Assembly (NCBI GenBank): GCA_050485765.1
Contig: JBJHBZ010000013.1
Span: 5,272-69,271, forward strand
DNA from: Phycisphaerales bacterium
GTDB taxonomy: Bacteria > Planctomycetota > Phycisphaerae > Phycisphaerales > UBA1924
Reading direction: 5' to 3'
DNA length: 64,000 nt
Shown: positions 9,237 to 64,000 of the stretch, piece after piece
Layout: each line of letters starts with the position of its first letter
How positions within the stretch are numbered: the first letter of the stretch is position 1
Translations under genes and position numbers: made by a program
Notes under the pieces: generated by a model
Database searches by the model: none
Told to the model about the DNA's origin: nothing
The model's input: only the letters and a program-made list of their open reading frames with translations

Positions 9237-9278
9237 TAGTGCCTAGTGCCTAGTGCCTCGTGCCTCGTGCCTCGTGCC
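9237..9278. repeat. Heptanucleotide tandem repeat (TAGTGCC)x3 (TCGTGCC)x3
   Basis: Read directly from the sequence: six contiguous 7-nt units between the pth stop (9289) and the rpsF start (9095), preceded by a CT-rich tract at 9216..9236. Confidence 0.9.
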
Positions 9279-9288
9279 TTCCGTCAAC

Positions 9289-9924: not shown

Positions 9925-9950
9925 GGGTGTTCACGCACGAGCCGCGGGGC

Positions 9951-12648: not shown

Positions 12649-12720
12649 TAGCCCGACAAGGATTCGAACCCTGACCCCCAGTACCAAAAACTGGTGTGCT
12701 AGCCATTACACTATCGGGCC
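12649..12720 (-). tRNA. tRNA-Gln (anticodon UUG)
   Basis: The reverse complement GGCCCGATAGTGTAATGGCTAGCACACCAGTTTTTGGTACTGGGGGTCAGGGTTCGAATCCTTGTCGGGCTA folds as a cloverleaf. The anticodon loop is TT-TTG-GT, the T-loop is GGTTCGAATCC, and no CCA is encoded. Confidence 0.85.
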
Positions 12721-14198: not shown

Positions 14199-15260
<1,062 letters not shown>

Positions 15261-15303
15261 CGCGTCCTTTGCGGGGGTCGGCGGGTGGCTCGGGGTGATG
15301 GAA

Positions 15304-15377
15304 AGGCCGCGGTGGGATTCGAACCCACGAATGACGGATTTGCAATCCGTTCCCTTAGTCCACTTGGGTACGCGGCC
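15304..15377 (-). tRNA. tRNA-Cys (anticodon GCA)
   Basis: The reverse complement GGCCGCGTACCCAAGTGGACTAAGGGAACGGATTGCAAATCCGTCATTCGTGGGTTCGAATCCCACCGCGGCCT has a 7-bp acceptor stem, anticodon loop TT-GCA-AA and discriminator U. Confidence 0.85.
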
Positions 15378-15507
15378 GGATTCGTCCCCCGTCACCGGCG
15401 GGTTTCGCTGGCGTGCGGGATGCGGACGCTACGATCATTTGAGGTCGGCGTCAACAGGACCGCCCGCCCGCCCGGGGTCGCCCGGCGGGCCGCGCACGGA
15501 GAGCGCC

Positions 15508-37080: not shown

Positions 37081-37153
37081 TGGAGCGGAGGAGATTCGAA
37101 CTCCCGACCTCATCATTGCGAACGATGCGCTCTACCAACTGAGCTACCGCCCC
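37081..37153 (-). tRNA. tRNA-Ala (anticodon CGC)
   Basis: The reverse complement GGGGCGGTAGCTCAGTTGGTAGAGCGCATCGTTCGCAATGATGAGGTCGGGAGTTCGAATCTCCTCCGCTCCA carries the G3:U70 identity pair and anticodon loop TT-CGC-AA. Confidence 0.9.
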
Positions 37154-44866: not shown

Positions 44867-45997
44867 TTACCGCTTGTCGATGGGCGTGTAGGCGACCTCG
44901 TGCGGGCCGACGTACTTGGCAGCAGGGCGGAAGAGGCGGTTGTCTTCGAGCTGCTCGAGGATGTGCCCGCACCACCCGCCGATGCGGCTCATCGCGAACA
45001 TCGGCGTGAACAGGTCGAGCTTGAGCCCGATGCAGTGGTACGTGGTCGCGGAGTAGAAGTCGACGTTGGGGTAGATCCCCTTGCTCGCGACCTCGCGCTC
45101 CATGATCTCTTCGATGCGGTGGCTCTTGGCGTAGAGCTCGCTGTTGCCGGTGTCCTCAGCCAGCTGCTTGGCGAGCTTCTGGAGGTCAGTCGCGCGCGGG
45201 TCCTTCGCCTTATAGACGCGGTGCCCGAAGCCCATGATCTTGTCCTTGCGCTCGAGCTTGCCCATGACGTACGCCTCGGCCTCGTCGACCGAGCCGATCT
45301 CGTTGAGCATGACCATGACGCCCTCGTTGGCGCCGCCGTGGAGCGGTCCGCGGAGGCTGCCGATCGCGCCGGTCAGGGCCGAGTAGACGTCGCTGAGCGT
45401 GCTGATGATCACCTTGGCGGCGAAGGTCGAGTTGTTGAACCCATGGTCGGCGTGCAGGATCATGCAGATGTCGAACGCGCGGGCCATGGTCTCGGTCGGC
45501 TTCTCGCCGTTGAGCATGTAGAGGAAGTTCTGGGCGAAGCTCAGGCTGGTGTCGGGCTTGATGAAATCCAGCCCGCGCCGGTGCCGATCGAAGTAGGCGA
45601 TGAGCGTCGGGGCGTGCCCGAGGATCGTGACGCTCTTGTGCCGGAGCACGTCGAGCTCGATGTTGTTGGGGTCCTTGTCGTCGAGGGCGAGGGCGCTGAC
45701 AAGGGTGCGGAGGGCGTGCATCGGGTGGGCCTCTTTGGGGAGGGCCTTGATGCGATCGATCATGGTCTGGGGGAGGGTGTAGGCGGCCCGGAGCTCTTTG
45801 TTGAAGGCGTCGAGCTCGCTCCGGGTCGGGAGCCGCTTGTTCCAGAGGAGGAAGACGGTTTCCTCGAAGGTGCTCTTGCTGCTGAGCTCGCCGATGGGGA
45901 TGCCGACATACTCGAGCACGCCCTTCTGCCCGTCGATGAAGGACATCTCGGTTTCGGCGGCCACGACGCCCTCGAGACCCTTGCTGTAGTCGCTCAT
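44867..45997 (-). CDS. gltA: Citrate synthase (short, ~376 aa type)
   Basis: LHADHGFNNSTF, GPLHGGANE, GFGHRVYKAKDPRA, NVDFYS. Start at MSDYSKG (45997). Confidence 0.9.
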   Translation of the reverse strand: MSDYSKGLEGVVAAETEMSFIDGQKGVLEYVGIPIGELSSKSTFEETVFLLWNKRLPTRSELDAFNKELRAAYTLPQTMIDRIKALPKEAHPMHALRTLVSALALDDKDPNNIELDVLRHKSVTILGHAPTLIAYFDRHRRGLDFIKPDTSLSFAQNFLYMLNGEKPTETMARAFDICMILHADHGFNNSTFAAKVIISTLSDVYSALTGAIGSLRGPLHGGANEGVMVMLNEIGSVDEAEAYVMGKLERKDKIMGFGHRVYKAKDPRATDLQKLAKQLAEDTGNSELYAKSHRIEEIMEREVASKGIYPNVDFYSATTYHCIGLKLDLFTPMFAMSRIGGWCGHILEQLEDNRLFRPAAKYVGPHEVAYTPIDKR

Positions 45998-46256
45998 GCA
46001 TCCTCCGACGCTGTCTGGTGTTGGGGTGTCGCGGGCGGGCGGCGGTGTGCGCCGACCGGTCCGCGGGATCAGGACGGGACTATAGGGACCGAGCCCGGCG
46101 GGACGCGCACGCCGCACGTCCCAGGCCCGGCGTGCCCCCAGCGGAGCACCGCTCTTTCGCCGATTCAGGCCCATCGGATGAGCCGAGGGGCGAGGGCGGG
46201 GGCTCTGGCGGGGTCGGCGGCCCGCGCCCCGAACGGGGGCCATAGGATGCCGTCAG

Positions 46257-52654: not shown

Positions 52655-54385
52655 TCACTCCCCCTCGCCGCGTCCGATCGGGCGCATCAGCGGGAACAGG
52701 ATCACGTCGCGGATCGTGCGCTCATTCGTCAGCAGCATGACCAGGCGGTCGATCCCGAGCCCCAGCCCGCCGGCCGGGGGCATGCCGACCTTCAACGCCT
52801 CGATGAAGTCCTCGTCGAACGTGCGGAACGTATTTTCCTCGTCGTCCAGCCCCGCAAGCTGCTGCTTGAAACGCTCGGCCTGCACGTCCGGGTCGTTCAA
52901 CTCCGTGTACGCCGGCCCGATCTCCATTCCGGCGATAAACAGGTCCCAACGCTCCGCGAGCGGGATCGCGTCCCCCTCGGTCCCCTTCTTGCCCTTGGTC
53001 AGCGGGCTCAGCGCGGCCGGGTAGTCGGTCACAAACGTCGGACGCGCCGGGTCGATCGACGCCTCCGCGACCTCCTCGAACAGCTCGTTCACGATCAGGA
53101 TCGGGTCCAGCGCCTGCCCCTGCTCGTTCTTGGTCTTCAGCTTGCGCTTCTCGGCTTCGCTGCGCGCACGATCGAAGTCATCAAACCGGAACCCCAGCGC
53201 ACGATCGAACAGCTCGGCGTACGTCACACGCTCAAAAGCACGCCCGTAATCGATCTTCAGCTCCCCGAACGGGAGCACCAGCGTCTCCGGCAGCTCGTCC
53301 TCGTCGGCCGGCTCCAGCACCGCGCACCCCTTGCCCGCGCCCGTCGTGTCCAGGTCGCGATCCTCCAGGATCACCACCCGCGCCAGCTCGCGGATCAGCC
53401 CCTCGGTCAGCGACATCATCGACCCGTAATCCCCGAAAGCCTCGTACACCTCGACGACCGTGAACTCCGGGTTGTGCGTCTTGTCGAGCCCCTCGTTGCG
53501 GAAGTTCCGGTTCAGCTCGTACACCCGCGCCATCCCGCCCACCAGCAGGCGCTTCAGATACAGCTCCGGCGCGATCCGCATGAACAGCTCGAGCCCCAGC
53601 GCGTTCATCGTCGTCCGGAACGGGCGAGCCGCCGCCCCGCCCGCCAGCGTCTGCAGCATCGGCGTCTCGACCTCGAGGTACCCGCGTTCGTCCAGATACC
53701 TGCGAATGCGGCTCACGATCCGGCTCCGAAGCGTGAACGTCCGCATCGTCTCCGGGTTCGACCACAAGTCCACATACCGCTTCCGGTACCGAAGCTCCAG
53801 GTCCTGCAGCCCCGCCCGCTTCTCCGGCGGCGGCGTCAGGCACTTGCCACCCGGAGCCGCGCCCTCCGCCCAGATCGTCACCTCCCCCGCGCGCGTCTTC
53901 ATCAGCGGGCCATGCACCACCACCAGGTCGCCCAGGTCCAGCTTCTTCGCGAGCGCGAAGCCCCGCTCGTCGCAGTCCCGCTTGCTCAGCGCGACCTGCA
54001 CGTCGCCCGTGTGATCGCGGACGTTGAGCCAGACCAGCTTCCCGTTGTCCCGGTGCAGCACGACCCGCCCGCCGACCGCGACCCGCGGGCGACGATCCTC
54101 CACCGGCGGCAACGCTGAATCGTCCAGCGACGGGTCCGCCTTCTTCGCCGCCGAGCGGGCCGACTCCGACACCTGGTGCTGCTGGTCGGCCGACTCGTCG
54201 TACCGACGCCTGGCCTCGGCGCACGAGGTCAGGTCCGGCGTGCGCACGCCGTACGGATCGAAACCGAGCGCCCCCACCGCCTCGCGGTTCGCTCGGCGTT
54301 GCAGCTCCAGCTTGTGCATCTCACCCGACGAATCGACGGGCGAATCCACGGGCAAAGACGACGGTGCGGCTGTGTCAGAGTCCAT
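52655..54385 (-). CDS. lysS: Lysine--tRNA ligase (class II)
   Basis: RYRKRYVDLWSNPETMRTFTLRSRIVSRIRRYLDERGYLEVETPML, NRNFRNEG, GLGLGIDRLVMLL. Start at MDSDTA (54385) or the MHKLEL Met downstream. Confidence 0.9.
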   Translation of the reverse strand: MDSDTAAPSSLPVDSPVDSSGEMHKLELQRRANREAVGALGFDPYGVRTPDLTSCAEARRRYDESADQQHQVSESARSAAKKADPSLDDSALPPVEDRRPRVAVGGRVVLHRDNGKLVWLNVRDHTGDVQVALSKRDCDERGFALAKKLDLGDLVVVHGPLMKTRAGEVTIWAEGAAPGGKCLTPPPEKRAGLQDLELRYRKRYVDLWSNPETMRTFTLRSRIVSRIRRYLDERGYLEVETPMLQTLAGGAAARPFRTTMNALGLELFMRIAPELYLKRLLVGGMARVYELNRNFRNEGLDKTHNPEFTVVEVYEAFGDYGSMMSLTEGLIRELARVVILEDRDLDTTGAGKGCAVLEPADEDELPETLVLPFGELKIDYGRAFERVTYAELFDRALGFRFDDFDRARSEAEKRKLKTKNEQGQALDPILIVNELFEEVAEASIDPARPTFVTDYPAALSPLTKGKKGTEGDAIPLAERWDLFIAGMEIGPAYTELNDPDVQAERFKQQLAGLDDEENTFRTFDEDFIEALKVGMPPAGGLGLGIDRLVMLLTNERTIRDVILFPLMRPIGRGEGE

Positions 54386-54573
54386 AAGACCCGATCCTAC
54401 GAGCCCACCCCCGACAAAACGCCCCAGAACCACGCGCGAGCCAACCCACCCCCATTTTTTCAACACGGCACTTGCCCGACCCGATATGTTAGTGTATACT
54501 AGCTAGTGATTGCTAACTATCTGCGGGCGAGTGGCTCGCAGGCGAGGACACCCCGACCCGAGAGGAACGCGCC

Positions 54574-54843
54574 ATGCTGCTGATCAAGCTTCTGAACCGT
54601 GCGAGTTACGCCCTGTGCCTGTTGGCGGTGGTCTTTGCCGCCGCCGGAGCGATCTGGGGCGTCTGGAACCCCGGGGCCGAGGGGGTGGCGTGGCGGAGCG
54701 TTGCGACGGCTCTGATCATCTGCGCCGCCGCCGGGGCCGTCATCGCCATCAACGGCATCCTCGGCGTCCGCATGATCCGCGAGCACGAAATGACCGCCTG
54801 GCTCCCCCTTGGCAAGACCGAGCCCGACAAGCCCTGCCGCTGA
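54574..54843 (+). CDS. Small hypothetical membrane protein (2 TM, 89 aa)
   Basis: Two hydrophobic helices, GAGAGG upstream of the ATG, and a TTGCCC-N17-TATACT promoter-like element at 54472..54500. Confidence 0.45.
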   Translation: MLLIKLLNRASYALCLLAVVFAAAGAIWGVWNPGAEGVAWRSVATALIICAAAGAVIAINGILGVRMIREHEMTAWLPLGKTEPDKPCR

Positions 54844-55074
54844 AAACCGCCGCAAAACAAAGCGCCCGGGCATCAAGTCACGTAAACCCTGAACAAACCG
54901 CAACTTCCACGTGAGAATCTGGCTGGACCTCGCGGCTTGCCCCGTCGTCCGGCGTGGTTCTCGGGCTCAGAACCCACGTCCGCGGTGGTTCTCAACCGCT
55001 CCGGGATCGGACAGTCTCCCTTTGGCGGGTGAACCGCCGCCGCCGCAGGGCGGCCGGGCAGGGGAGGGCGACCG

Positions 55075-55848
55075 ATGTCGGGCACGCAGGGGCACAAGGC
55101 GAGCAGGGCGACCGTCGCAGCCGCGTCGGCCGCCCTTGTCGTCCTGCTCAGCACCCCCGGGTGCGCCGCCCCTCCGGGCTCGCCCGCCCCCGGGCCCGCG
55201 CCGGCCCGCCCGGTCGCGATGCCGCACGTCACCTCCGGGGGCCCGACAGTGACGATCCGACGGGCCGAGACCCCGGACGATCGGGCGATGCTCCGCCCGC
55301 ACCAGCCGGCCCACGTCGCCGGCGCCGCCGCGATGGCGCTCGAGGAGGTCGTCTTCTACCAAGGCCGCCCGATCGCGGCGACGGTCCACCTCGGCGGGCC
55401 GACGCGCGACGTCGACGCGGTCATCCTCGCCCTGATGACCGACGAGTGCCACACGCGCTTCGCCCGCCTCTTCGTCGTCGGCTCGCGCGACCACTACCAG
55501 CTCGCCCGCCCCACCGGCCCGCGCCGTGAACGCCGAACCCCGCCGGAGCTCCGGCGCGAGTTGCAACGCCTGCACATCGATCAGCCCGGGCGCGACGCCG
55601 TCGAGGTTCTCGAAGCCCACGACCAGACCATCCTCGGGCGACGCTTCACCCGCGCCCGCCTGCGCCTGAACCTCTACCACTGGTACGAGACCACCAGCCT
55701 CGGGCCCGCGTGCTTCGAGCTCCAAGGGCACCCGCTCGACCCGAGCGACCCCGGCATGCCGCCCGTCCGACTCGTCGGCGAACGCCAGCTCTGCCCACCC
55801 GGCGGGCGCGCCACCGAGCAATGGGTCCGAGCGGCGGCGCGCCGCTGA
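55075..55848 (+). CDS. Putative lipoprotein (hypothetical)
   Basis: Lipobox-like VVLLSTPGC. No family recognised. Confidence 0.5.
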   Translation: MSGTQGHKASRATVAAASAALVVLLSTPGCAAPPGSPAPGPAPARPVAMPHVTSGGPTVTIRRAETPDDRAMLRPHQPAHVAGAAAMALEEVVFYQGRPIAATVHLGGPTRDVDAVILALMTDECHTRFARLFVVGSRDHYQLARPTGPRRERRTPPELRRELQRLHIDQPGRDAVEVLEAHDQTILGRRFTRARLRLNLYHWYETTSLGPACFELQGHPLDPSDPGMPPVRLVGERQLCPPGGRATEQWVRAAARR

Positions 55849-55946
55849 GCGGGCCGCGCACCACGCGCCGGCATCGCGCAAGCGCGCCCTGCGGCACAAG
55901 CTCAATCGCATGAAAGCACCCTCGATATTTCTGAGTTCTTTGTGGG

Positions 55947-56147
55947 TTGACCCTGCGTCGATCGCCGAATAATCTCTGACCGATGCCCCACGTGCAGTCC
56001 ACCAAAGCCACGAAAGTCAAAGCCAAAGACGCCGCGAGCGTCCGGGCTGTGACTCTGGCTTTGGTGGTTTCGATCGCGTAGCACGCGACGACCCAACCGA
56101 CCGAACGCCACGCACTCCCGGACCCGTGTCCGGGGGTGTTTTCGTTT
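55947..56147 (+). promoter_or_regulatory. Candidate promoter plus ~170-nt structured 5' leader of the lysW operon, ending in an intrinsic terminator (attenuator or riboswitch-like)
   Basis: TTGACC (55947..55952) and ATAATC/AATAAT (about 55968..55974). Rod-like hairpin with perfect 12-bp arms CCACCAAAGCCA (55999..56010) / TGGCTTTGGTGG (56056..56067) and inner helices AGTCA/TGACT and GACGC/GCGTC. Confidence 0.35.
56117..56147 (+). terminator. Intrinsic terminator 44 nt upstream of the lysW start codon
   Basis: CCCGGAC-CCGT-GTCCGGG followed by GGTGTTTTCGTTT. Confidence 0.55.
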
Positions 56148-56190
56148 GCACCCGTTCTCTTTTCCGCGACCCGCAACCAAGGAGCCCGCC

Positions 56191-56379
56191 ATGAGCGCGA
56201 CCGAGACTCAGATCCAGGCCATCTGCCCCGAGTGCGACGCCGTCATCACCTTCGATCGTCCGCCGCTGAACGGGCAGGTCGTCCGCTGCCCGGACTGCGG
56301 GGCGGAGCTGGAGGTCGTCTCGATCAACCCGATCCGCCTCGAGCTCGCGCCGGAGGTGGAAGAGGACTGGGGCGAGTAA
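56191..56379 (+). CDS. lysW: Amino-group carrier protein LysW
   Basis: CPECDAVI...CPDCGAELEVVSINPIRLELAPEVEEDWGE: zinc ribbon plus the hallmark C-terminal EDWGE. SD context AAGGAGCCCGCCATG. Confidence 0.9.
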   Translation: MSATETQIQAICPECDAVITFDRPPLNGQVVRCPDCGAELEVVSINPIRLELAPEVEEDWGE

Positions 56380-56455
56380 AGCCCCGCGCCCCTCTTCACC
56401 CCCACGACCACCCCACGCCCGCCCGCCCCGTTTGCACCACCCACCGGAGCCCGCC

Positions 56456-57364
56456 ATGCGCATCGCGATGACCTTCACCCGCCTGCGAACCGAGGAACGC
56501 CTGCTCCTCGACGCGTTCGAATCGCTCGGCGTCCGCGTCGACCCGATCGACCTCCGACGCGTCGTCTTCGACCCCGCACGCCTCGGCGAGTGGGCGTCCT
56601 ACGACGCGGTGATCGATCGATCGGTCAGCCTCACCGCCGGGCTCACGGCGGTCCGCGTTCTCGAAGGGCTCGGCCTGCGCTGCATCAACGCCGCCGACGC
56701 GATCGAGACCTGTTCCGACAAGCTCCGCACCACGATCGCGCTGCTCCGCGCGGGCGTGCCGACGCCGGGCGTGCGCGTCGCGATCGGGCCGGAAGCCGGA
56801 CTAGAGGCGATCGAGGCGATCGGGTACCCCGCGGTGCTGAAGCCGACCATCGGCTCTTGGGGGCGGCTCGTGGCGCGTGTGAACGACCGCGACGCGAGCG
56901 AGGCCCTGCTGGAGCACCGCGACACGCTCGGCTCCGCCCAGCAGAGCGTCGTCTACGCCCAGGAGCACATCGACAAGCCGGGGCGCGACATCCGCGTCTT
57001 CGTCGTCGGCGGCGAGGCGATCGCCGCGATCGTGCGCACGAGCGCGCACTGGGTGACCAACACCGCCCGCGGCGCGACGGCCGCCGGGCTGGAGCTCACC
57101 GACGACATGCGCGAGCTCTGCACCCACGCCGTCGCGTCGACCGGGGCCGACGTCGCGGCCGTGGACGTCCTCGAATGCCCGGCCCGCGGCCCGCTCGTCA
57201 ACGAGATCAACCACTCCATGGAGTTCCGCAACAGCATCACCACCACCGGCGTCGACATCCCGGCCCACGTCGCGCGCCACGTCGTGCAGATTGCCGAAGA
57301 TGCCCGCAACAGCGGCGCCCGTGCGCACGAGAGCGTGCGCCCCGAAGCCGGGGTGAGCGCGTGA
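56456..57364 (+). CDS. lysX: ATP-grasp ligase LysX (alpha-aminoadipate--LysW ligase; RimK family)
   Basis: GYPAVLKPTIGSWGRLVARV, YAQEHIDKPGRDIRVFVVGGEAIAAIVRTSAHWVTNTARG, VNEINHSMEFRN. Same GGAGCCCGCCATG start context as lysW. Confidence 0.9.
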   Translation: MRIAMTFTRLRTEERLLLDAFESLGVRVDPIDLRRVVFDPARLGEWASYDAVIDRSVSLTAGLTAVRVLEGLGLRCINAADAIETCSDKLRTTIALLRAGVPTPGVRVAIGPEAGLEAIEAIGYPAVLKPTIGSWGRLVARVNDRDASEALLEHRDTLGSAQQSVVYAQEHIDKPGRDIRVFVVGGEAIAAIVRTSAHWVTNTARGATAAGLELTDDMRELCTHAVASTGADVAAVDVLECPARGPLVNEINHSMEFRNSITTTGVDIPAHVARHVVQIAEDARNSGARAHESVRPEAGVSA

Positions 57365-58389
57365 GCCTGCGCGTCTCGATCATCGGCGGGAGCGGGTACA
57401 CCGGCGGCGAATTGCTGCGCCTGCTGCTCGCCCACCCGGGAGCGGAGATCGCGCAGGTCACCTCCCGCCGTCTCGCGGGGGAGCCGGTCGCGCGCACGCA
57501 CCCGAACCTGCGCGGGCACGTGGCGCACACGTTCTGCACGCCGGAGGAGGTCGAAGCGTGCGACGTGCTGTTTCTGTGCATGCCGCACGGGCAGGCGGCG
57601 GCGCAGGTCGAGCGCTGGCGCTCGATCGCGCCGCGGATCATCGATCTTTCGGCCGACCTGCGCCTGCGTGATCCCGCGTCGTACGAGCGTTGGTACAACG
57701 AGCCCCACCCCGAGCCGCGTCTCCTCACCGAGGCGGTGTACGGGCTTGCCGAGATCTCGCGCGACCGCCTGCCCAGCGCGACGCTCATCTCTGGCGTCGG
57801 GTGCAACGCGACCGCGATGACCCTCGCCCTCCTCCCACTCGCCCGCGCGGGTCTGATCCGGCGCGTAATCGCGGACGTGAAGGTCGGCTCCTCGGAAGCC
57901 GGCGCTGAGCCCGGCCCGGGCTCGCATCACCCCGTCCGTGCGCGCGCCGCCCGCACCTACAGCCCCAGCGGGCATCGGCATATCGCCGAAGTTCTGCAGT
58001 CGCTCGGCGAGATCGATCTCGACGCGACCGTCACCGCGATCGACATGGTTCGCGGCGTGCTCTGCACCGCGCACGTCGAGCCGACCGAACCCGTGACGAG
58101 CAAGGATCTCTGGAAGCTCTACCGCGCCGCCTACGCCGAGGAGCCGTTCGTGCGCCTCGTCGCCGAGCGGAGCGGACCGAGCCGCTTCCCGGACCCGCGC
58201 ACGCTCATCGGCTCCAACCACGCCGACGTCGGCTTCGCGATCGACGAACGCTCCGGGCGCATCCTCGCGCTGTGCGCGATCGACAACCTCGTCAAAGGCG
58301 CGGCCGGCTCAGCCATCCAGGCGATGAACGTCGCGATGGGGCTCCCCGAAACCTCCGGGCTCACCTTCCCCGGCCTGCACCCCGCCTGA
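57361..58389 (+). CDS. lysY: LysW-aminoadipyl-phosphate reductase (ArgC family)
   Basis: VSIIGGSGYTGGELLRLL, GVGCNATA (active-site Cys). GTGA overlap with lysX. Confidence 0.85.
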   Translation: MSLRVSIIGGSGYTGGELLRLLLAHPGAEIAQVTSRRLAGEPVARTHPNLRGHVAHTFCTPEEVEACDVLFLCMPHGQAAAQVERWRSIAPRIIDLSADLRLRDPASYERWYNEPHPEPRLLTEAVYGLAEISRDRLPSATLISGVGCNATAMTLALLPLARAGLIRRVIADVKVGSSEAGAEPGPGSHHPVRARAARTYSPSGHRHIAEVLQSLGEIDLDATVTAIDMVRGVLCTAHVEPTEPVTSKDLWKLYRAAYAEEPFVRLVAERSGPSRFPDPRTLIGSNHADVGFAIDERSGRILALCAIDNLVKGAAGSAIQAMNVAMGLPETSGLTFPGLHPA

Positions 58390-58428: not shown

Positions 58429-59262
58429 ATGTCCACGATTGTCATCAAGATCGGCGGCGGCGAAGGGATCGATCCGGCGCAGGCCGCCCCGGAAATCGCC
58501 CAACTCGTCCGCGACGGACGCCGCGTCGTGCTCGTCCACGGCGGCTCACACGAGACAAACCAGCTCGCCGAAGCGCTCGCACATCCGACGCGAACGATCA
58601 CCAGCCCCAGCGGGCATACCTCGCGGCGCACCGACCGGCGCACGCTCGAGATCTTCAGCATGGCGTACTGCGGCCTGGTCAACACACGCGTCGTCGAGAG
58701 TCTTCGACGCGAAGGCGTTGACGCGATCGGGCTGAGCGGCATCGACGCCGGGCTCTGGATCGGCACACGCAAGAGCGCCATCCGCGCGATCGAGGAGGGG
58801 CGGACCGTGCTCATCCGCGACGATCTCTCGGGTAAGGTCGATCGGGTCAACGCCGAACTCCTGAACATGCTGCTGGATTCGGGACGCGTGCCGGTCCTCA
58901 CGCCGCCCGCGGTCACGCCCGACGGCATCGCGATCAATGTCGATGCGGATCGCGCCGCCGCCGCGACCGCCGGGGCATTGCAGGCGGATGAACTACTCCT
59001 GCTCTCCAACGTGCCCGGGCTCCTTCACGATCCGGCGGACCCGTCGTCACGGATCGCGAACGTCAATCCATCCACGCTCGAAGCCGCACGCTCGCACGCA
59101 CGCGGGCGGATGAAGAACAAGGTCCTCGCGGCCGAAGAAGCGCTCGGCGCGGGCGTGCCGCGCGTTGTGATCGCCAGCGCGACACGCGACCGCGCGATCG
59201 CGCACGCCAGGCTCGGCGACGGCACCATGTTCATCAACACGCCGAGCGAGGTGACCGCGTGA
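58429..59262 (+). CDS. lysZ: LysW-aminoadipate kinase (ArgB / amino-acid kinase family)
   Basis: IVIKIGGGEG...VVLVHGGSHETNQL and NVDADRAAAATAGAL. Confidence 0.85.
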   Translation: MSTIVIKIGGGEGIDPAQAAPEIAQLVRDGRRVVLVHGGSHETNQLAEALAHPTRTITSPSGHTSRRTDRRTLEIFSMAYCGLVNTRVVESLRREGVDAIGLSGIDAGLWIGTRKSAIRAIEEGRTVLIRDDLSGKVDRVNAELLNMLLDSGRVPVLTPPAVTPDGIAINVDADRAAAATAGALQADELLLLSNVPGLLHDPADPSSRIANVNPSTLEAARSHARGRMKNKVLAAEEALGAGVPRVVIASATRDRAIAHARLGDGTMFINTPSEVTA

Positions 59263-60371
59263 GCGCCGGCAGACTCGCCATGACGGACAGCGTTCGAATC
59301 GTGCACGACCTGGTCGCGACGCCGAGCGTTTCAGGCGATGAGCACGCCGCGGCGCGGGTATTCGCGAGCCACGCCGAACGCCTCGGCATGACGCCCGAGA
59401 TCGACCAAGCGGGCAACGCCCTCGCGCACCGCGGCGCCCCGAACGCCCGCACGCACATCGTCCTGCTCGGCCACATCGACACCGTACCCGGACGCATCCT
59501 CGTGCGGATCGAAGACCGCGCCCTGCACGGACGCGGAAGCGTCGACGCCAAGGGCCCGCTCGCAGCAATGCTCGTTGCGGCGTCAAACGCCGAACTGCCG
59601 GAGGGCGTCCGTCTCACGGTGGCCGCGGCCGTGGGCGAAGAGACCGCCGGCTCGCCCGGGGCTCGGCACCTCGTGCACCAGTACCGACCCGACGCGTGCA
59701 TCATCGGCGAGCCGAGCGGGTGGGACGGCGTCACGCTCGGCTACAAGGGACGTCTGCTCGTCACCGCCAGCACAACACGCGAGCACGCGCACTCCGGAGG
59801 CCCCCAGCCGAGCGCCTGCGATGAAATCCACGATTGGTGGAGCCGTGTGCTGGATCTTGCAAACTCGTTTAATACGCCACACGAACGCGCGTTCGACCAG
59901 TTGCAGACTTCCCTCCGCAGCATCGCGAGCGAGGAAGACGCCTTCCACCAGCACGTCCGCGCGCACGCCGGGTTCCGCCTCCCGCTCACGCTCACACCCG
60001 CGCAGCTCCGCCAGCAACTCGTATCGATCGCGAGCGAGCACACCCGCCTCGAGTTCGACGGCATGGAGCACGCGTTCGCCACCGATCGAAACGACCCGGT
60101 CGTACGCGCCCTCTCCGGCGCGATCCGCCAGCACGACGGGCGCCCGCGCCCCAAGCTCAAGACCGGCACGTCCGACATGAACGTCGTCGCCCCGCACTGG
60201 CGTTGCCCCATCGCCGCCTACGGACCAGGCGACAGCTCGCTCGACCACACACCGCACGAACACCTCGACCTCGACGAGTACGAGCGCGCGATCCGTGTGC
60301 TCCGGACCTCGCTCGAAACGCTCGCGAACGAACTCGCCACACGCTCAGACACGCCGCAGAACGCTGAATAA
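59259..60371 (+). CDS. lysK: LysW-lysine hydrolase (M20 / ArgE family)
   Basis: LVATPSVSGDE, LLGHIDTVPG, GRGSVDAKGP, GEETAG. GTGA overlap with lysZ; an alternative ATG lies at 59280. Confidence 0.8.
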   Translation: MSAGRLAMTDSVRIVHDLVATPSVSGDEHAAARVFASHAERLGMTPEIDQAGNALAHRGAPNARTHIVLLGHIDTVPGRILVRIEDRALHGRGSVDAKGPLAAMLVAASNAELPEGVRLTVAAAVGEETAGSPGARHLVHQYRPDACIIGEPSGWDGVTLGYKGRLLVTASTTREHAHSGGPQPSACDEIHDWWSRVLDLANSFNTPHERAFDQLQTSLRSIASEEDAFHQHVRAHAGFRLPLTLTPAQLRQQLVSIASEHTRLEFDGMEHAFATDRNDPVVRALSGAIRQHDGRPRPKLKTGTSDMNVVAPHWRCPIAAYGPGDSSLDHTPHEHLDLDEYERAIRVLRTSLETLANELATRSDTPQNAE

Positions 60372-60386: not shown

Positions 60387-61241
60387 ATGCCCGCCACCGC
60401 AGCCACATCGCGACCGCCGCCCACACCACGCGCGACGCACGACGGCCCGAGCCTCGTGCGCGACGGCGAGATCCTCGCACGCGGCCTGCCCATCGGGCAC
60501 CTCATCGCCAACCAGTCTTACATCGACGCGATCTTCTTCCAGCTCCAGGCCCGCGAGCCGACGCCGCTCGAACGCACCATGATGGACGCCTACCTCGTCG
60601 CGCTCTGCGAGCACGGTGTGACCTCTCCGTCCACGCACGGCCCGCGTGTCACCGCCAGCGTGCGCGCGCCATTTGCCGCGACCGCGGTGAGCTTCATCGC
60701 CACCGCGATGGGCCCCTATCACTTCGGCGCACTCGAACGCACGATGCACACCCTCCTCGAGCTCGACGCGACGGATGAAGACATACCGAGCTACATCGAT
60801 CGAAAGGCCGCCGAAGGGGAGCGAGTCTGGGGCTTCGGGCACCGCTTCCACAAGAGCACGGGCGAGCCTGACCCGCAGCAGGCGGCGCAAGAAGACGCCG
60901 ACCCGCGCGTGCGCGCACTGATCCGCCTGGCCGACGAGCTCGGGTGGCCGGGGCGCCATCTGCAACGTGTCCGAGAGCTCGGGCGCGCACTCCACGAACG
61001 CAAGCGCATCCCGATCAACATCGACGGCGTCGCCGCCGGCCTGCTGCTGGACATGGGCTTCGAGCCCGAAACCGCCCTGCTCTTTGTCATCCTCGGCCGC
61101 CTGCCGAACATCGCCCGCTTGCACGCCGAGGAGCAGCACGAAACCACCAATCGCTTCACGGCTCTCGCCACACGCGAAGACCCCGGATTCAACCGCACCA
61201 TCGACCGCGACCAGCACCACACCCGCGAGACCCGCCCATGA
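60387..61241 (+). CDS. Citrate-synthase-fold protein, short form (citryl-CoA-lyase-like)
   Basis: LCEHGVTSPSTH, GFGHRFHKS (compare GFGHRVYK in gltA at 44867..45997) and INIDGVAAGLL (compare NVDFYS). At ~284 aa it lacks the N-terminal third of a full citrate synthase. Confidence 0.65.
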   Translation: MPATAATSRPPPTPRATHDGPSLVRDGEILARGLPIGHLIANQSYIDAIFFQLQAREPTPLERTMMDAYLVALCEHGVTSPSTHGPRVTASVRAPFAATAVSFIATAMGPYHFGALERTMHTLLELDATDEDIPSYIDRKAAEGERVWGFGHRFHKSTGEPDPQQAAQEDADPRVRALIRLADELGWPGRHLQRVRELGRALHERKRIPINIDGVAAGLLLDMGFEPETALLFVILGRLPNIARLHAEEQHETTNRFTALATREDPGFNRTIDRDQHHTRETRP

Positions 61242-61846
61242 ACACCGCCACCATCGCAACAGCAACGACTGACCAAGCGCACGCGATCGCCGAGCTTTTT
61301 CCAAGCATCCGTCAGATCCAGAGCCCCGCGCTGCGCGCACAAGTCGAAGCCGTCTGGCAGGAAGCCATAGCGACGGGCAACGCCGGGCGAGGATGGACGT
61401 CCGACGAACTCCGCGAGCTGCCGTTCACGCTCCTCGCCGGCGCGACGCCGATGCGCTTCATCGAGCATCTCAACAGCTGCGCCGAGCAGTGCCTTGCGAT
61501 CGCCGGCGTGCTCCGATCGACCTTCATCGAACGGGTGCCGATCGACGACGACACACTGCTCGCGGGCGCGCTGCTCGCCGACGTCGGTAAACTGTTCGAG
61601 TTCGAACAATGTCCGGCACGCGGGCTGATCCAGGGCGAATCGGGGCGTCTGCTGCGCCACCCGTTCACCGGGGCCGCGCTCTGCCGAAAGCACAATCTAC
61701 CCGATACCGTCACGCACATCGTCGCGGCCCACAGCCACGAGGGCGACCGCATCCAGCGCTCGATCGAGTGCATCATCTTCCATCACGCCGATTTCATCGA
61801 TTTCGATATCGCCAAGGCCATCGCCGTGGGAGACAACGCGCGATGA
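61238..61846 (+). CDS. HD-domain protein
   Basis: LLADVGK...HPFTGAALC...AAHSHEG...FHHADFIDF gives an H..HD..D metal-ligand pattern. ATGA overlaps on both sides. Confidence 0.6.
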   Translation: MNTATIATATTDQAHAIAELFPSIRQIQSPALRAQVEAVWQEAIATGNAGRGWTSDELRELPFTLLAGATPMRFIEHLNSCAEQCLAIAGVLRSTFIERVPIDDDTLLAGALLADVGKLFEFEQCPARGLIQGESGRLLRHPFTGAALCRKHNLPDTVTHIVAAHSHEGDRIQRSIECIIFHHADFIDFDIAKAIAVGDNAR

Positions 61847-63837
61847 GCACGCACGCAGACCATCGCACCACCATCGAAAAGATCGTGGCGCGTCACGCGG
61901 CCGGGTGGCACGAATCACGTCCGCCGCGAGCAGGCGATTACGTGCGCATCCGCCCGCGTCACGTGATGACCCACGACAACACCAGCGCGGTCATCCCGAA
62001 GTTTCACGCGCTCGCGGGGCGCGACGCCCAGGTCCACGACTCGACCCAGCCCGTCTTCGCGATGGACCACGACATCCAGAACCACACGCCTGAGAACCTC
62101 GGAAAATACGCCCGAATCCGCTCATTCGCCGAGCGCCATGCGATCCGCTATTACCCGCCCGGGCGAGGCATTGCGCATCAGGTCATGATCGAAGAAGGCT
62201 TCGTCACCCCGGGCGCGATGATCGTCGCCTCGGACTCGCACGCCAACATGTACGGCGCGATCGCCGCGCTCGGCACGCCCGTTGTCCGCACCGATGCCGC
62301 CGCGATCTGGGCGACCGGCGAAACATGGTGGCAGGTCCCGCCCCAGGTCCGCGTCACGCTCCGCGGTCGACTCCGGCCCGGCGTAACCGGCAAGGACGTC
62401 GTCCTCGCCCTGTGCGCACGCTTCAACAGCGGCGAAACCCGCAACGCCGCGATCGAGTTCACCGGCGACGGCGTCGCGCACCTCACCATCGCCGACCGGA
62501 TGACCATCGCGAACATGACCACCGAATGGGGCGGTCTCGCCGGCCTCTTCCCTTTTGACGATCGCTTGTACCGCTGGCTGCTCGAGCGGGCCCGAGCACT
62601 CGCGGCCCATCACACACCGGCGTACACCGCAGCCGACGTTCACCAGTGGTGGACGCAGCGCACCGAACTCCATTCCGATCCCGGCGCGTCCTTCGTCCGC
62701 GAGATCGTGCTGGATCTCGCCAGCGTGACGCCGCACGTCACCGGTCCGAACAGCGTGACCACGGCCCGCCCCGTCGCCGACCTCGAGTCGCAGCGCACCC
62801 GCATCGACAAGGCGTACCTGATGAGCTGCGTCAACGCACGCCTCCCCGATTTCGAAGCCGCGGCCGCCGTCTTCGGCGACAGCCGGCGCGTCGCCCCACA
62901 CGTCCGCTTCTACATCGCCGCCGCCTCGAGCGAGGTCCAGCAACAGGCCGAGCGAAGCGGCGCGTGGCGCACGCTCCTCCGGGCGGGCGCGATCCCGCTC
63001 TCGCCCGGGTGCGGCGCCTGCATCGGTCTCGGCGAGGGCACGCTGGAACCCGGCGAAGTCGGCATCAGCGCCACCAACCGAAACTTCGAAGGACGCATGG
63101 GAGCGCGCGACGCCGATTGCTACCTCGCCAGCCCCGCCGTCGTCGCAGAGTCCGCGATCCGCGGGCATATCGCCTCGCCGCACGCCATAACCAGCGAGAT
63201 CATCGCCAGTTCTCACGAAGCGCCCCGCACCCACACCCCACACGCACCGGCACCCTCACTGATCGACGGCTTCCCCGCCTCCATCGACGCCCGCGCGATC
63301 CTGCTCCCGCTCGACCATATCAATACCGACGCCATCTACGACCGCGACGTCACCTACCGCGACGACCTCACGCGAGCGCAGCAAGCCGCCTGCGCGATGC
63401 GGAACTACGACCCCGATTTTCAGCGCATCGCGCACGCCGGCGACGTCCTGATCGCCGGTCACAACTTCGGCGCGGGCTCCAGCCGCGAGCAGGCCGCCAC
63501 GGCACTCCAGGCGTTCGGCATCCGCGCCATCATCGCCGCGAGCCTGAACCAGACCTACCAGCGCAACGCCCTCAACAACGCCCTCATCACCATCGAGTGC
63601 GAGCCGCTTGTCGACCACCTCCGCGCCACCATCGCCCGCACAGCCGCGGCCCGCACCGTCTACGCCCCTCCCGTCCGCATCGACTTCGCCGCATCCACCA
63701 TCGAGTGCGACGCCCGAACGTTCACGTTTCAACCTCTGACCGAGCCCGCGCAGCGTCTGATCGTCGCCGGCGGGCTCGAGTCGCTCCTCGCACGCCGCTT
63801 CCGTCAAACGCCGGAAGCCGCCGGAACGCTCGCATGA
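61843..63837 (+). CDS. Fused large+small subunit aconitase-family dehydratase, predicted homoaconitase
   Basis: HVMTHDNTS, DHDIQN, ASDSHANMYGA, SCVNARLPD, PGCGACIGLG and ATNRNFEGRMG (Fe-S cysteines). Then the swivel domain GHNFGAGSSREQAA on the same polypeptide (664 aa). Confidence 0.8.
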   Translation: MSTHADHRTTIEKIVARHAAGWHESRPPRAGDYVRIRPRHVMTHDNTSAVIPKFHALAGRDAQVHDSTQPVFAMDHDIQNHTPENLGKYARIRSFAERHAIRYYPPGRGIAHQVMIEEGFVTPGAMIVASDSHANMYGAIAALGTPVVRTDAAAIWATGETWWQVPPQVRVTLRGRLRPGVTGKDVVLALCARFNSGETRNAAIEFTGDGVAHLTIADRMTIANMTTEWGGLAGLFPFDDRLYRWLLERARALAAHHTPAYTAADVHQWWTQRTELHSDPGASFVREIVLDLASVTPHVTGPNSVTTARPVADLESQRTRIDKAYLMSCVNARLPDFEAAAAVFGDSRRVAPHVRFYIAAASSEVQQQAERSGAWRTLLRAGAIPLSPGCGACIGLGEGTLEPGEVGISATNRNFEGRMGARDADCYLASPAVVAESAIRGHIASPHAITSEIIASSHEAPRTHTPHAPAPSLIDGFPASIDARAILLPLDHINTDAIYDRDVTYRDDLTRAQQAACAMRNYDPDFQRIAHAGDVLIAGHNFGAGSSREQAATALQAFGIRAIIAASLNQTYQRNALNNALITIECEPLVDHLRATIARTAAARTVYAPPVRIDFAASTIECDARTFTFQPLTEPAQRLIVAGGLESLLARRFRQTPEAAGTLA

Positions 63838-64000
63838 CCGCGCCCCGACCCCGCATCGCGTTGCTCCCGGGCGACGGCATCGGCCCCGAAGTCCTGACGC
63901 CCGCCCGGCGCGTGCTCGACGCCCTCGCTTTCGACGCCGAGTATGTCCACGCCGACATCGGCTGGCGTTTCTGGCAGACCGAGGGCGACGCGCTCCCCGT
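63834..64000 (+). CDS. Isocitrate/isopropylmalate dehydrogenase family enzyme, predicted homoisocitrate dehydrogenase (3'-truncated by the window end)
   Basis: RIALLPGDGIGPEV N-terminal signature. ATGA overlap with the upstream gene. Confidence 0.7.
   Translation, partial: MTAPRPRIALLPGDGIGPEVLTPARRVLDALAFDAEYVHADIGWRFWQTEGDALP

Follow-up and report, generated by a model that had tools for sequence, protein, structure and literature searches.

The elongation of 2-oxo acids outside the TCA cycle, as in the synthesis of leucine, lysine, coenzyme B and citramalate, is to our knowledge always started by an enzyme of the LeuA family. In the α-aminoadipate (AAA) pathway to lysine this enzyme is the LeuA/NifV-type homocitrate synthase (HCS), known from Thermus thermophilus (2ztj) and as yeast Lys20/21, which has a DRE-TIM metallolyase fold and forms (R)-homocitrate. 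The citrate synthase (CS) fold, in a truncated form, is found in the citryl-CoA lyase (CCL) of Hydrogenobacter thermophilus (6hxp) and in the CCL module of ATP-citrate lyase. The characterised CCLs are lyases rather than synthases, enzymes of the CS family are normally strict for oxaloacetate, and a 2026 survey of autotroph genomes reportedly found citryl-CoA synthetase and lyase (CCS/CCL) in Aquificaceae and Leptospirillum only.

The fungal AAA pathway employs a fused homoaconitase of the TIGR00139 type, and its downstream half proceeds through saccharopine. Fungal-type homoaconitases interconvert homoaconitate and homoisocitrate only (PMC3556520), and because the Lys4-type enzyme is limited to this step, a second enzyme, in fungi a housekeeping aconitase, is needed for homocitrate dehydration. 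In the methylcitrate cycle, PrpC, an enzyme of the CS family, is encoded together with PrpD and an aconitase, and PrpD is required since aconitases dehydrate toward the arm derived from the oxo acid and cannot do so toward the acyl-CoA-derived arm, which is the direction taken by PrpD (PMC5690661).

Here we describe an operon of a Phycisphaerales (Planctomycetota) bacterium that suggests an undescribed start of the α-aminoadipate route to lysine. Like the methylcitrate trio, the operon combines genes for a CS-family enzyme, an MmgE/PrpD-family protein and an aconitase-family hydratase. The likeness has its limits: the proposed acceptor and donor are 2-oxoglutarate and acetyl-CoA, the last step, by homoisocitrate dehydrogenase (HICDH), is oxidative decarboxylation and not the lyase reaction of PrpB, the PrpD-family member is very divergent, and the condensing enzyme is of the truncated CCL type, not a full-length synthase. 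Compared with the fungal pathway, the candidate second enzyme is an operon-encoded MmgE/PrpD-family or HD protein instead of a housekeeping aconitase, and the downstream half relies on LysW carrier chemistry instead of saccharopine. A full-text search of the literature returned nothing on a CS-fold or CCL-type homocitrate-forming enzyme, on a PrpD-type homocitrate dehydratase, on AAA or LysW lysine synthesis in Phycisphaerae or Planctomycetes, or on CCS/CCL beside homoaconitase.

A LysW-type lysine operon of ten genes

The operon was found in a stretch of 64 kb (the window), the edge of which falls within the HICDH gene (Table 1). Its order is lysW-X-Y-Z-K, the CCL-like gene, HD, fused homoaconitase, HICDH and an MmgE/PrpD-like gene. 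The last gene lies beyond the window and was read in a 98%-identical contig (L120) and also in a related locus (L008), in both of which the full-length HICDH gene is seen as well; the preliminary description had missed it. LysW, LysX, LysZ and LysK exceed the curated NCBIfam cut-offs for the LysW pathway, and LysY is matched only by the general ArgC model.

Table 1. Genes of the lysine operon in the window and the canonical citrate synthase gene of the same window
Gene	Position	Strand	Product and assignment
canonical citrate synthase (CS)	44867-46243		
lysW	56191..56379	+	carrier protein, 62 aa, C-terminal EDWGE; TIGR01206, 78.9 bits (cut-off 53.2); Pfam Zn_ribbon_LysW
lysX	56456..57364	+	LysW:α-aminoadipate ligase, ATP-grasp; TIGR02144, 308 bits (cut-off 275.6)
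lysY	57361..58389	+	ArgC-like reductase; TIGR01850, 360 bits; also called as a gene in contig L120 (98% identical)
lysZ	58429..59262	+	[LysW]-aminoadipate kinase; NF010659, 338 bits (cut-off 223)
lysK	59259..60371	+	[LysW]-lysine hydrolase; NF003367, 407 bits (cut-off 363)
CCL-like	60387..61241	+	284 aa; divergent citryl-CoA-lyase-type; proposed acetyl-CoA:2-oxoglutarate condensing enzyme
HD	61238..61846	+	HD-fold protein, 202 aa; Pfam HD, 31.1 bits (cut-off 22)
fused homoaconitase	61843..63837	+	large + small subunit, fungal LYS4 type; TIGR00139, 668 bits (cut-off 530)
HICDH, 5' end	63834..64000	+	gene continues past the window edge

In the preliminary description, two genes coupled by ATGA overlaps were placed between lysK and the homoaconitase gene. 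Both open reading frames are intact, with unchanged coordinates, and NCBIfam models bear out the identities of their flanking genes. The ATGA overlaps hold for the CCL-like/HD (61238-61241) and HD/homoaconitase (61843-61846) junctions but not for the border between lysK and the CCL-like gene, where a 15-nt spacer leaves no overlap. A further ATGA joins the homoaconitase and HICDH genes (63834-63837), and upstream the GTG start of lysY overlaps the stop of lysX (GTGA), as the GTG start of lysK does the stop of lysZ. The CCL-like gene starts with an ATG 8 nt downstream of GGAG. The CCL-like and HD genes are translationally coupled and are members of the ten-gene lysine operon. No lysine riboswitch or other Rfam element was found at gathering score in the window, or at E<=1 in 54400-56400, and a promoter and terminator scan across the operon gave nothing exceeding chance.

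The operon has in common with the Thermus/Deinococcus LysW cluster the lysW, lysX, lysY, lysZ and lysK genes, homoaconitase and HICDH. It differs from that cluster in that hcs is absent, a fused, fungal-type homoaconitase replaces lysT/lysU, lysJ is missing from the operon, and three genes (CCL-like, HD and PrpD-like) are added. HCS is the only pathway-specific step without a gene in the operon, and the only unassigned operon genes are those of a Claisen-type acyl-CoA enzyme, the HD protein and the PrpD-family protein. In agreement with the earlier statement that no LeuA/NifV-type HCS is visible, the window was negative both in a tblastn search and in a motif scan. With T. thermophilus HCS as a probe, validated against 3a9i/2ztj, no such gene was found by tblastn (E<1) in 1.38 Mb consisting of the window and 120 loci, the relatives being searched within +/-10 kb of each related locus, and neither the window nor any of the 120 loci has a match to the LeuA-type motifs DTTLRDGxQ and HxH. 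Nor does a canonical HCS gene follow just downstream, where its presence, according to the preliminary description, would have spoken against the proposal: in L120 and L008 the operon ends after HICDH and the MmgE/PrpD-like gene.

The closest solved chain to the fused homoaconitase is the homoaconitase large subunit 4kp2, and the best NCBIfam model for the dehydrogenase of L008 is homoisocitrate dehydrogenase. The MmgE/PrpD-like protein, represented by its L008 orthologue, reaches 112 bits against a cut-off of 950 and 37 against 458 with the PrpD equivalogs, and among solved structures IDS-epimerase and cis-aconitate decarboxylase are nearer to it than PrpD is. Since it is far below the PrpD cut-offs and nearer to other enzymes, a dehydratase role for it is only a guess.

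A divergent protein of the citryl-CoA lyase type

The preliminary description presented the product of the first of the two genes as a CS-fold protein of about 284 aa with GFGHRFH and I-D-G motifs that resembles CCL, and this description stands. Pfam Citrate_synt matches the protein with 96 bits at profile positions 146-341 of 357 only, and it is therefore an N-terminally truncated CS fold in which the motifs WGFGHRFHK and PINIDGV are found. In our mapping, the pig CS residues H238, H274, H320, R329, D375, R401 and R421 correspond to H76, H112, H152, R174, D213, R238 and R256, all seven of which are invariant in 53/53 family members. The catalytic His/His/Asp set and the three substrate arginines are thus kept, as they are in the 6hxp CCL, and of the residues checked only the equivalent of F397 is changed (to Val). 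Because the catalytic residues are invariant across the 53 members, the CCL-like protein is predicted to be an active enzyme.

The closest PDB relative, both by sequence profile and by Foldseek fold (TM 0.73/0.81), is the 6hxp CCL, and the matches to 6hxp and 6z2h assign to the family a CCL fold and, by likeness, (3S)-citryl-CoA stereochemistry. Identity of the CCL-like protein to the known CCL is about 25-30%, and the differences lie in part at the oxo-acid site. In the CCL-like clade HGGA is changed to HFGA beside the H274 equivalent, an insertion of 15-21 aa stands immediately ahead of the R329 equivalent, and a 6-residue insertion follows the R421 equivalent; the Val at the F397 equivalent is a clade-specific change as well. 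The first two features occur together in 7/7 sampled clade members, and 0/16 of the other CCL and CS sequences compared have either. With the longer insertion the clade departs from canonical CCLs, in which GxGH(R)xx(x) is separated from DPR by 1-2 residues. The protein is below the cut-off of all six NCBIfam CCL models (PRK06224), the best of which, NF004866, gives 127.9 bits against 245, and models of full-length CS, a protein of about 370-430 aa, give <=70 bits against cut-offs >330. With a canonical CS gene in the same window, the housekeeping CS is a different protein from the CCL-like one. It is a protein of the citryl-CoA lyase type and belongs to a Phycisphaerales-only subfamily sharply set apart from other CCLs. 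The context differs as well, as the gene stands in a lysine operon and not in a citrate-cleavage setting, with no citryl-CoA synthetase partner in the window. The protein is outside the LeuA/NifV HCS family, with which no sequence similarity was found and whose fold it does not share, but it could act like HCS.

Gene neighbourhoods in Phycisphaerales and other lineages

The arrangement is met again in numerous genomes of Phycisphaerales. The context of the CCL-like gene was counted in 27 species-level genomes, the neighbours being called by tblastn of reference proteins. The lysWXYZK genes are immediately upstream in 10/27 genomes, and the HD, homoaconitase (HACN), HICDH and PrpD-like genes share the locus in 11/27, in 10 of them directly downstream. 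Both sets are present in four of the 27 genomes and at least one in 17, which agrees with the co-occurrence with lysW clusters that the preliminary description proposed to look for in relatives; in the remaining ten the CCL-like gene is apart from lysine genes. All-against-all clustering revealed no further conserved neighbours beyond the ten operon families and CcsA/CcsB/CCL2/GNAT.

The citryl-CoA synthetase subunits CcsA and CcsB had no match in the 64-kb window or in the loci where the CCL-like gene directly precedes HD. This arrangement is seen in 10/11 GTDB loci that combine the CCL-like gene with HD-HACN, with no Ccs gene <=10 kb. Among CCL-like loci, CcsA/CcsB are found only in L019 and L022, alongside a second, canonical CCL, and L022 has in one row CcsA, CcsB::CCL2, HD, CCL-like, HACN, HICDH and PrpD-like. 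Together with CP060234.1, three genomes carry the CCL-like gene in addition to the canonical CcsAB-CCL set, and since they have both, the two types of CCL are not simply interchangeable. This coexistence, which was missed in the preliminary description, complicates a simple one-for-one replacement.

The HD family is much more widespread, a fact also missed at first: its 2188 homologues, at about 60% identity, are spread over different phyla. The HD gene usually stands near citryl-CoA synthetase/lyase genes and the fused homoaconitase seen here, and it is the homoaconitase, rather than the CCL gene, that is its tightest neighbour. Outside Phycisphaerales the common order is CcsA-CcsB-CCL2-HD-HACN-HICDH(-PrpD), and in two loci, L045 and L053, a gene of the saccharopine dehydrogenase family is located between HD and HACN. 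The HD protein has LLADVGK, i.e., an Ala-Asp (A114-D115) in place of the His-Asp doublet of the LLHDIGK type, in 33/33 aligned members, at what we take, from the consensus of PF01966, the HD-domain metal-dependent phosphohydrolases, to be the metal-ligating doublet position; C81 and C85 are invariant in the family alignment. A PDB sequence search with the family gave no match. The structure model (pLDDT 91) has as its nearest PDB folds remote HD-domain proteins (best TM 0.58), and since the fold neighbours are only remote ones, no function can be transferred from them. We take the HD protein to be a highly conserved, enzyme-like companion of CCL-type genes and of the fused homoaconitase, and its family makes a well-defined target.

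A possible CS-fold entry into lysine synthesis

We regard it as an even question whether the CCL-like enzyme condenses acetyl-CoA with 2-oxoglutarate and replaces the LeuA-type HCS in the α-aminoadipate pathway; the condensing-enzyme interpretation offered in the preliminary description is in this sense partly supported. The enzyme would join the two substrates in a Claisen condensation, as a homocitryl-CoA lyase working toward synthesis, with the same net reaction and pathway position as HCS, and either it or a partner would then cut the homocitryl-CoA thioester. Attack at the si face, as in CS-fold enzymes, would yield (S)-homocitrate or (S)-homocitryl-CoA, a configuration expected from the CIP rules and the stereochemistry of the family and opposite to that of the HCS product. 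The acetyl-derived arm of the (S)-product would be the one where aconitase-family enzymes fail to dehydrate. Formation of cis-homoaconitate may be the task of the MmgE/PrpD-family protein, of the HD protein, perhaps acting on the CoA ester, or of both; rehydration alone would be left to the fungal-type homoaconitase, and the 2-oxoadipate made by HICDH would feed LysWXYZK. The si-type stereochemistry would explain the PrpD-family gene in the operon, as in the methylcitrate cycle.

The proposal is favoured by the association with lysine genes in 17/27 genomes, by the lack of a LeuA-type HCS in the 1.38 Mb searched, by the invariant catalytic set and by changes at the oxo-acid site that are clade-specific and absent from all other CCL and CS sequences examined, and also by other lineages, in which HD-HACN-HICDH follows CcsA-CcsB-CCL, saccharopine-dehydrogenase-family genes occur and the homoaconitase equivalog is passed. 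Also in its favour, the CCL reaction is near equilibrium, at -2.1 +/- 3.9 kJ/mol (PMC13147460). Counted against it are the ten genomes with the CCL-like gene away from lysine genes, the three with both CCL types, the lyase function of the characterised CCLs, the usual strictness of the CS family for oxaloacetate, the distance of the MmgE/PrpD-like protein from PrpD, and the homoaconitase as the tightest neighbour of HD.

It is unlikely, in our judgement, that the genome has a LeuA-type HCS at another site and that the CCL-like protein serves central metabolism as a plain citryl-CoA lyase or a minimal CS-type enzyme (e.g., one balancing the supply of acetyl-CoA, oxaloacetate and 2-oxoglutarate), sharing no more than a transcript with the lysine genes. 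Citryl-CoA lyases are indeed its best database relatives, the association with lysine genes is broken in the ten genomes mentioned, and the absence of HCS covers the +/-10 kb loci only; however, the protein is far under every curated CCL cut-off (128 against 245 bits) and its oxo-acid-site changes are clade-specific, the window has no citryl-CoA synthetase and already holds a canonical CS, a canonical CCL, where present, comes in addition, and the gene is repeatedly placed between lysK and HD-homoaconitase with coupled translation.

There is also little probability that the condensation is performed by a CcsAB-CCL2 encoded elsewhere, which would make homocitryl-CoA and then cleave the thioester with a yield of ATP, and that the CCL-like protein is an accessory processing the CoA ester, as a thioesterase-like protein or a scaffold. 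The gene order usual outside the Phycisphaerales clade, the single row of L022 and the three genomes with both CCL types are what such an arrangement would lead one to expect, but in 10/11 loci the CCL-like gene itself occupies the position of CcsAB-CCL2 before HD with no Ccs gene <=10 kb, L022 being the exception, and the full Claisen catalytic set is invariant in its family.

We find it very unlikely that the module runs in the cleavage direction, from 2-oxoadipate through homoisocitrate, homoaconitate and homocitrate or homocitryl-CoA to acetyl-CoA and 2-oxoglutarate, as a catabolic or reverse route comparable to citrate cleavage in the reductive TCA cycle. Known CCS/CCL work that way, CCL and CCS are near equilibrium (PMC13147460), and the saccharopine-dehydrogenase-family genes of L045 and L053 could equally be catabolic; against this, translation of the window genes is coupled to that of LysWXYZK, which are biosynthetic and consume ATP, the window has no ccsAB, and a reductive carboxylation would be required. 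Finally, that the aconitase-family and Iso_dh genes are true aconitase and isocitrate dehydrogenase, in a TCA or reductive TCA citrate module unrelated to lysine, is scarcely credible, since, although the citrate branch of the reductive TCA cycle consists of CCS/CCL, aconitase and IDH (PMC13147460), the homoaconitase equivalog is exceeded in three lineages (668, 717 and 760 bits against 530), the dehydrogenase is best matched by the HICDH model, the genes are joined to lysWXYZK operons and a PrpD-family gene would be superfluous for citrate. The values of 717-760 bits are those of the aconitase-family genes of the other lineages, and a reductive TCA reading of the wider CcsAB-CCL cluster was rejected on this ground.

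Our preferred reading, condensation by the CCL-like enzyme, can be extended, with distinctly less confidence, to a widespread CoA-ester route from 2-oxoglutarate to 2-oxoadipate. In this tentative scheme a CCL-type enzyme would make (S)-homocitryl-CoA, its dehydration toward the acetyl-derived arm, perhaps still as a 3-hydroxyacyl-CoA, would fall to the HD and/or MmgE/PrpD protein, the thioester would be hydrolysed or traded for ATP by a citryl-CoA-synthetase homologue, and the hydration-only homoaconitase and HICDH would complete the route, which would stand in for the LeuA-type HCS in Phycisphaerales and also, where CcsAB-CCL takes part, in Pirellulales, Anaerolineae and numerous soil and marine bacteria.

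The clusters of CcsAB-CCL with HD, homoaconitase and HICDH mean that homologues of citryl-CoA synthetase and lyase are unreliable as markers of the reductive TCA cycle in metagenomes. If the proposal is true, a CS-fold enzyme in lysine synthesis would be a clear example of non-orthologous displacement in which the stereochemistry is inverted, which would account for the PrpD-family gene within the lysine operon and explain why annotation pipelines would score such organisms as being without the first α-aminoadipate step. It would also identify the enzyme that dehydrates homocitrate where homoaconitase is limited to hydration, a point so far settled for fungi and Thermus alone.

The lysine operon and its surroundings

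The DNA of the window is chromosomal and high-GC (~70%), and a single co-directional string of genes spans its part from 56191 to the end. The preliminary description had the citryl-CoA-lyase-like (CCL-like) and HD-fold genes embedded in this string by overlapping codons. Both genes, their neighbors and the ATGA couplings are as described, the overlaps being found at three junctions (CCL-like/HD, HD/homoaconitase and homoaconitase/homoisocitrate dehydrogenase, HICDH); lysK and the CCL-like gene, however, do not overlap and are separated by a 15-nt spacer with GGAG inside.

Features of the window (5' to 3')
Feature	Position	Strand	Remarks
tRNA gene	12649-12720	-	
ORF	15244-16599	+	candidate gene by GC3 filter; no Pfam match
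tRNA gene	15304-15377	-	inside ORF 15244-16599
tRNA gene	37081-37153	-	
Type II citrate synthase	44867-46243	-	TIGR01800, 490 bits (cut-off 421)
LysRS, class II	52655-54466	-	TIGR00499, 483 bits (cut-off 428)
Small unannotated ORF	54574-54843		
Small unannotated ORF	55075-55848		
Hairpin	56112-56139	+	GC-rich, then T-rich tract
lysW	56191-56379	+	passes curated NCBIfam cut-off for LysW pathway
lysX	56456-57364	+	passes curated NCBIfam cut-off for LysW pathway
lysY	57361-58389	+	passes general ArgC model only
lysZ	58429-59262	+	passes curated NCBIfam cut-off for LysW pathway
lysK	59259-60371	+	passes curated NCBIfam cut-off for LysW pathway
CCL-like gene	60387-61241	+	citrate-synthase fold, 284 aa
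HD gene	61238-61846	+	202 aa
Fused homoaconitase	61843-63837	+	equivalog TIGR00139, 668 bits (cut-off 530)
HICDH	from 63834	+	isocitrate/isopropylmalate-dehydrogenase family; 5' start only

The continuation of the string is seen in related loci. A contig with proteins identical to those of the window (L001) extends the dehydrogenase to 297 residues. In L120, where the HD protein is 98% identical, lysX-lysK, the CCL-like gene, HD, homoaconitase and HICDH (404 aa) are followed by an MmgE/PrpD-family gene (485 aa; 8661-10118), the start of which overlaps the HICDH stop, and then by crcB on the opposite strand; the operon ends in the same way in L008, the closest species-level genome (84% identity; MmgE/PrpD-family gene at 14602-16065). 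Since these two loci show the end of the operon, it consists of ten genes and contains no homocitrate synthase downstream, which agrees with the earlier remark that none of the LeuA/NifV type is visible here. The MmgE/PrpD-like protein scores far under the PrpD cut-offs, and solved structures of IDS-epimerase and cis-aconitate decarboxylase (E about 1e-24) match it better than those of PrpD do (1e-8).

No DRE-TIM motif was found in 626 kb of the window and the loci, and tblastn with the Thermus thermophilus homocitrate synthase (a sequence validated against PDB 3a9i/2ztj over its full length at 830 bits) returned nothing at E<1 in 1.38 Mb (window plus 120 loci). Nor do the Pfam annotations of the retrieved contigs contain an HMGL-like gene.

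The hairpin ~50 nt upstream of lysW could end transcription of the gene before it or act as a leader element; it has no Rfam match, and hairpin-type sites in the region are not above chance in number. The LysRS gene is divergent from the operon and lies ~1.7 kb upstream, with two small ORFs in between. The remaining window is ordinary and encodes T2SS-type ATPases, ribosomal proteins, PRPP synthetase, MutS, HflX, TsaD, a zinc ABC transporter, a PLP enzyme and a rhomboid protease in addition to LysRS and three tRNAs. The ORF that contains one of these tRNA genes may be spurious, as it lacks a Pfam match.

The CCL-like protein and its genomic context

In the Pfam citrate synthase profile, the match of the CCL-like protein is confined to the C-terminal two thirds, and its best NCBIfam matches are citryl-CoA-lyase models, far under their cut-off (128 vs 245 bits). 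The closest solved structure is the citryl-CoA lyase of H. thermophilus (6hxp; profile E 3e-35, fold TM 0.73/0.81), followed by CCL modules of ATP-citrate lyases and then by full citrate synthases. Since a canonical type II citrate synthase, whose true start is probably ~80 codons inside the ORF, is encoded in the same window, the CCL-like protein is not the housekeeping enzyme.

A search of 5.8 billion proteins yielded ~109 relatives with at least 47% identity, while the next matches have no more than 36%; nearly all named sources are Phycisphaerales, Phycisphaeraceae or Planctomycetota, and two are labelled cyanobacterial. On a neighbor-joining tree the family forms a long branch of its own, next to all the remaining CCLs. 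H76, H112, H152, R174, D213, R238 and R256, which correspond to H238, H274, H320, R329, D375, R401 and R421 of pig citrate synthase, are invariant in 53/53 sequences. Two features are present in every sampled member and in no other CCL or citrate synthase compared: HFGA in place of HGGA after the H274 equivalent, and, immediately ahead of the R329 equivalent, 15-21 extra residues between GxGHRFH(K/R) and DPR, which form a low-confidence loop in the AlphaFold model (pLDDT 86). The protein also has Val at the F397 equivalent and a six-residue insertion after the R421 equivalent. Judged from sequence, this residue pattern is that of an active enzyme with a putatively remodelled oxo-acid site.

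A scan with one genome per GTDB species, with neighbors identified by tblastn using the window proteins, gave 27 loci, all from Phycisphaerales or from bins otherwise labelled. The lysWXYZK genes are directly upstream in 10/27, and HD-homoaconitase-HICDH-MmgE/PrpD-like share the locus in 11, being directly downstream in 10; both sets are present in four loci, and the gene stands by itself in 10. Co-occurrence with lysWXYZK and/or HD-homoaconitase-HICDH is thus seen in 17 of the 27 species-level loci, which contain no further conserved neighbor family. In genomes with a lone CCL-like gene, a 136-aa ORF lacking Pfam and NCBIfam matches precedes it (L002 9540-9950; also L003 295-705).

The HD protein and the wider Ccs cluster

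The HD family (2188 proteins at E<=1e-3) is much wider than the CCL-like family; even the best 120 homologues, among them sequences from Pirellulales, Anaerolineae and soil metagenomes, retain ~60% identity. It has LLADVGK in place of the HD-domain LLHDIGK, and C81, C85 and several histidines are invariant. The model is confident (pLDDT 91), its solved-structure neighbors are remote HD-domain proteins only (best TM 0.58), and a profile search of PDB sequences with the family gave no match.

Context was counted in 84 loci from outside the Phycisphaerales family, of which 80 came from a metagenome scan, using only those with enough sequence on the relevant side. Homoaconitase lies <=3.5 kb downstream of HD in 41/49 loci and HICDH downstream in 19/25, while upstream are a CCL-type gene (<=2.5 kb, 27/53) and the citryl-CoA synthetase subunits CcsB (18/30) and CcsA (17/30); an MmgE/PrpD-like gene is <=10 kb away in 5/18. 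Aconitase-family genes of these loci pass the homoaconitase equivalog (717 and 760 bits). Since homoaconitase is its tightest partner, HD may have a role at the homoaconitase step. In two metagenome loci a saccharopine-dehydrogenase-family gene (Pfam Sacchrp_dh_NADP + Sacchrp_dh_C; L053 11857-13071, L045 11814-13277) lies between HD and homoaconitase, an independent link to lysine metabolism and a hint that the second half of the pathway is of the saccharopine type in these lineages.

The Pirellulales locus L037 has the order CcsA-like, CcsB-like, canonical 259-aa lyase (CCL2), HD, fused homoaconitase, HICDH; Anaerolineae (L036), other planctomycetes (L038) and a Phycisphaeraceae chromosome (L035) have comparable arrangements. 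The conserved cluster, comprising CcsA-like (ATP-grasp), CcsB-like (CoA ligase), ~260-aa CCL, sometimes GNAT, HD, fused homoaconitase, HICDH and sometimes MmgE/PrpD-like genes, is widespread in Pirellulales, Anaerolineae and many contigs from soil and marine metagenomes (also L046, L058, L061, L062, L086, L088, L091, L116 and others). Its citryl-CoA synthetase/lyase homologues are linked here with homoaconitase chemistry and not with the reductive TCA cycle. L119 (10001-15395) has the order CCL-HD-MmgE/PrpD-CcsA-CcsB; its CCL is 36% identical to the CCL-like protein and has HGGA, and homoaconitase and HICDH are absent within 10 kb.

The CCL-like gene shares a locus with HD-homoaconitase in 11 GTDB Phycisphaerales genomes; in ten of these it directly precedes HD, the slot of CcsA-CcsB-CCL2 elsewhere, and no Ccs gene is found within 10 kb. 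The exception, L022, has CcsA, a CcsB::CCL2 fusion, HD, CCL-like, homoaconitase, HICDH and PrpD-like genes in one row. Its fusion (2307-4127, a 606-aa ORF of a Phycisphaerales MAG) joins a CcsB-like CoA-ligase domain to a canonical CCL domain, the architecture of the ATP-citrate-lyase alpha subunit. Both sets fall inside a 17-kb stretch in L019 and are at separate places on chromosome CP060234.1. Because the CCL-like gene occupies the slot of the Ccs/CCL2 set in ten loci while these three genomes keep both, the CCL-like gene is a clade-specific paralogue that sometimes replaces this set and sometimes accompanies it. CCL-like and CCL2 proteins are ~30% identical, and their coexistence in some genomes argues against simple equivalence.

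A possible route from 2-oxoglutarate to 2-oxoadipate

The operon covers every pathway-specific step from 2-oxoglutarate to lysine but the condensation; aminotransferases of the lysJ and lysN types commonly serve other pathways as well. The CCL-like gene is one of three extra genes of the operon, and its chemistry, a Claisen condensation of acetyl-CoA with a 2-oxo acid, would fit exactly: the protein would condense acetyl-CoA with 2-oxoglutarate, and the thioester would be cleaved afterwards. Citrate-synthase-family enzymes are normally oxaloacetate-specific, and we know of no CCL that hydrolyzes the thioester. The CCL reaction lies close to equilibrium (-2.1 +/- 3.9 kJ/mol for cleavage; PMC13147460), and therefore synthesis would be feasible if the thioester is then cleaved. 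We see about an even chance that the CCL-like protein carries out the condensation, as the replacement for homocitrate synthase originally suggested from sequence and context.

LeuA-type homocitrate synthases produce (R)-homocitrate, and under the CIP rules CH2COOH takes priority over CH2CH2COOH. The citryl-CoA formed by citrate-synthase-fold enzymes is the (3S) form (PDB 6z2h title), which makes the acyl-CoA-derived arm pro-S, and the same geometry with 2-oxoglutarate would give (S)-homocitrate. Aconitase-family enzymes take the proton from the oxo-acid-derived arm, and PrpD exists because 2-methylcitrate needs dehydration toward the acyl-CoA-derived arm (PMC5690661); the lysine route also needs the double bond toward the acetyl-derived arm. 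Fungal-type homoaconitases only interconvert homoaconitate and homoisocitrate (PMC3556520). Given this stereochemistry, the arm-selective dehydration and the limits of fungal-type homoaconitases, a citrate-synthase-fold synthase, a PrpD-family dehydratase and a homoaconitase used for hydration only would form a self-consistent set, parallel to PrpC, PrpD and aconitase of the methylcitrate route.

Alternatively, dehydration may occur at the level of homocitryl-CoA, which is a 3-hydroxyacyl-CoA, with HD or the PrpD-like protein as a candidate catalyst; the thioester would then be cleaved later, by hydrolysis or, where CcsAB is present, by CcsAB with ATP formation. That a widespread CoA-ester-based module leads from 2-oxoglutarate to 2-oxoadipate is a tentative idea, which we hold to be less likely than not.

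A full-text literature search returned no description of a citrate-synthase-fold homocitrate-forming enzyme, of a PrpD-type enzyme in lysine synthesis, of the alpha-aminoadipate/LysW pathway in Phycisphaerae or Planctomycetes, or of CCS/CCL genes beside homoaconitase, and in a 2026 survey of autotroph genomes CCS/CCL are given only for Aquificaceae and Leptospirillum (PMC13147460).
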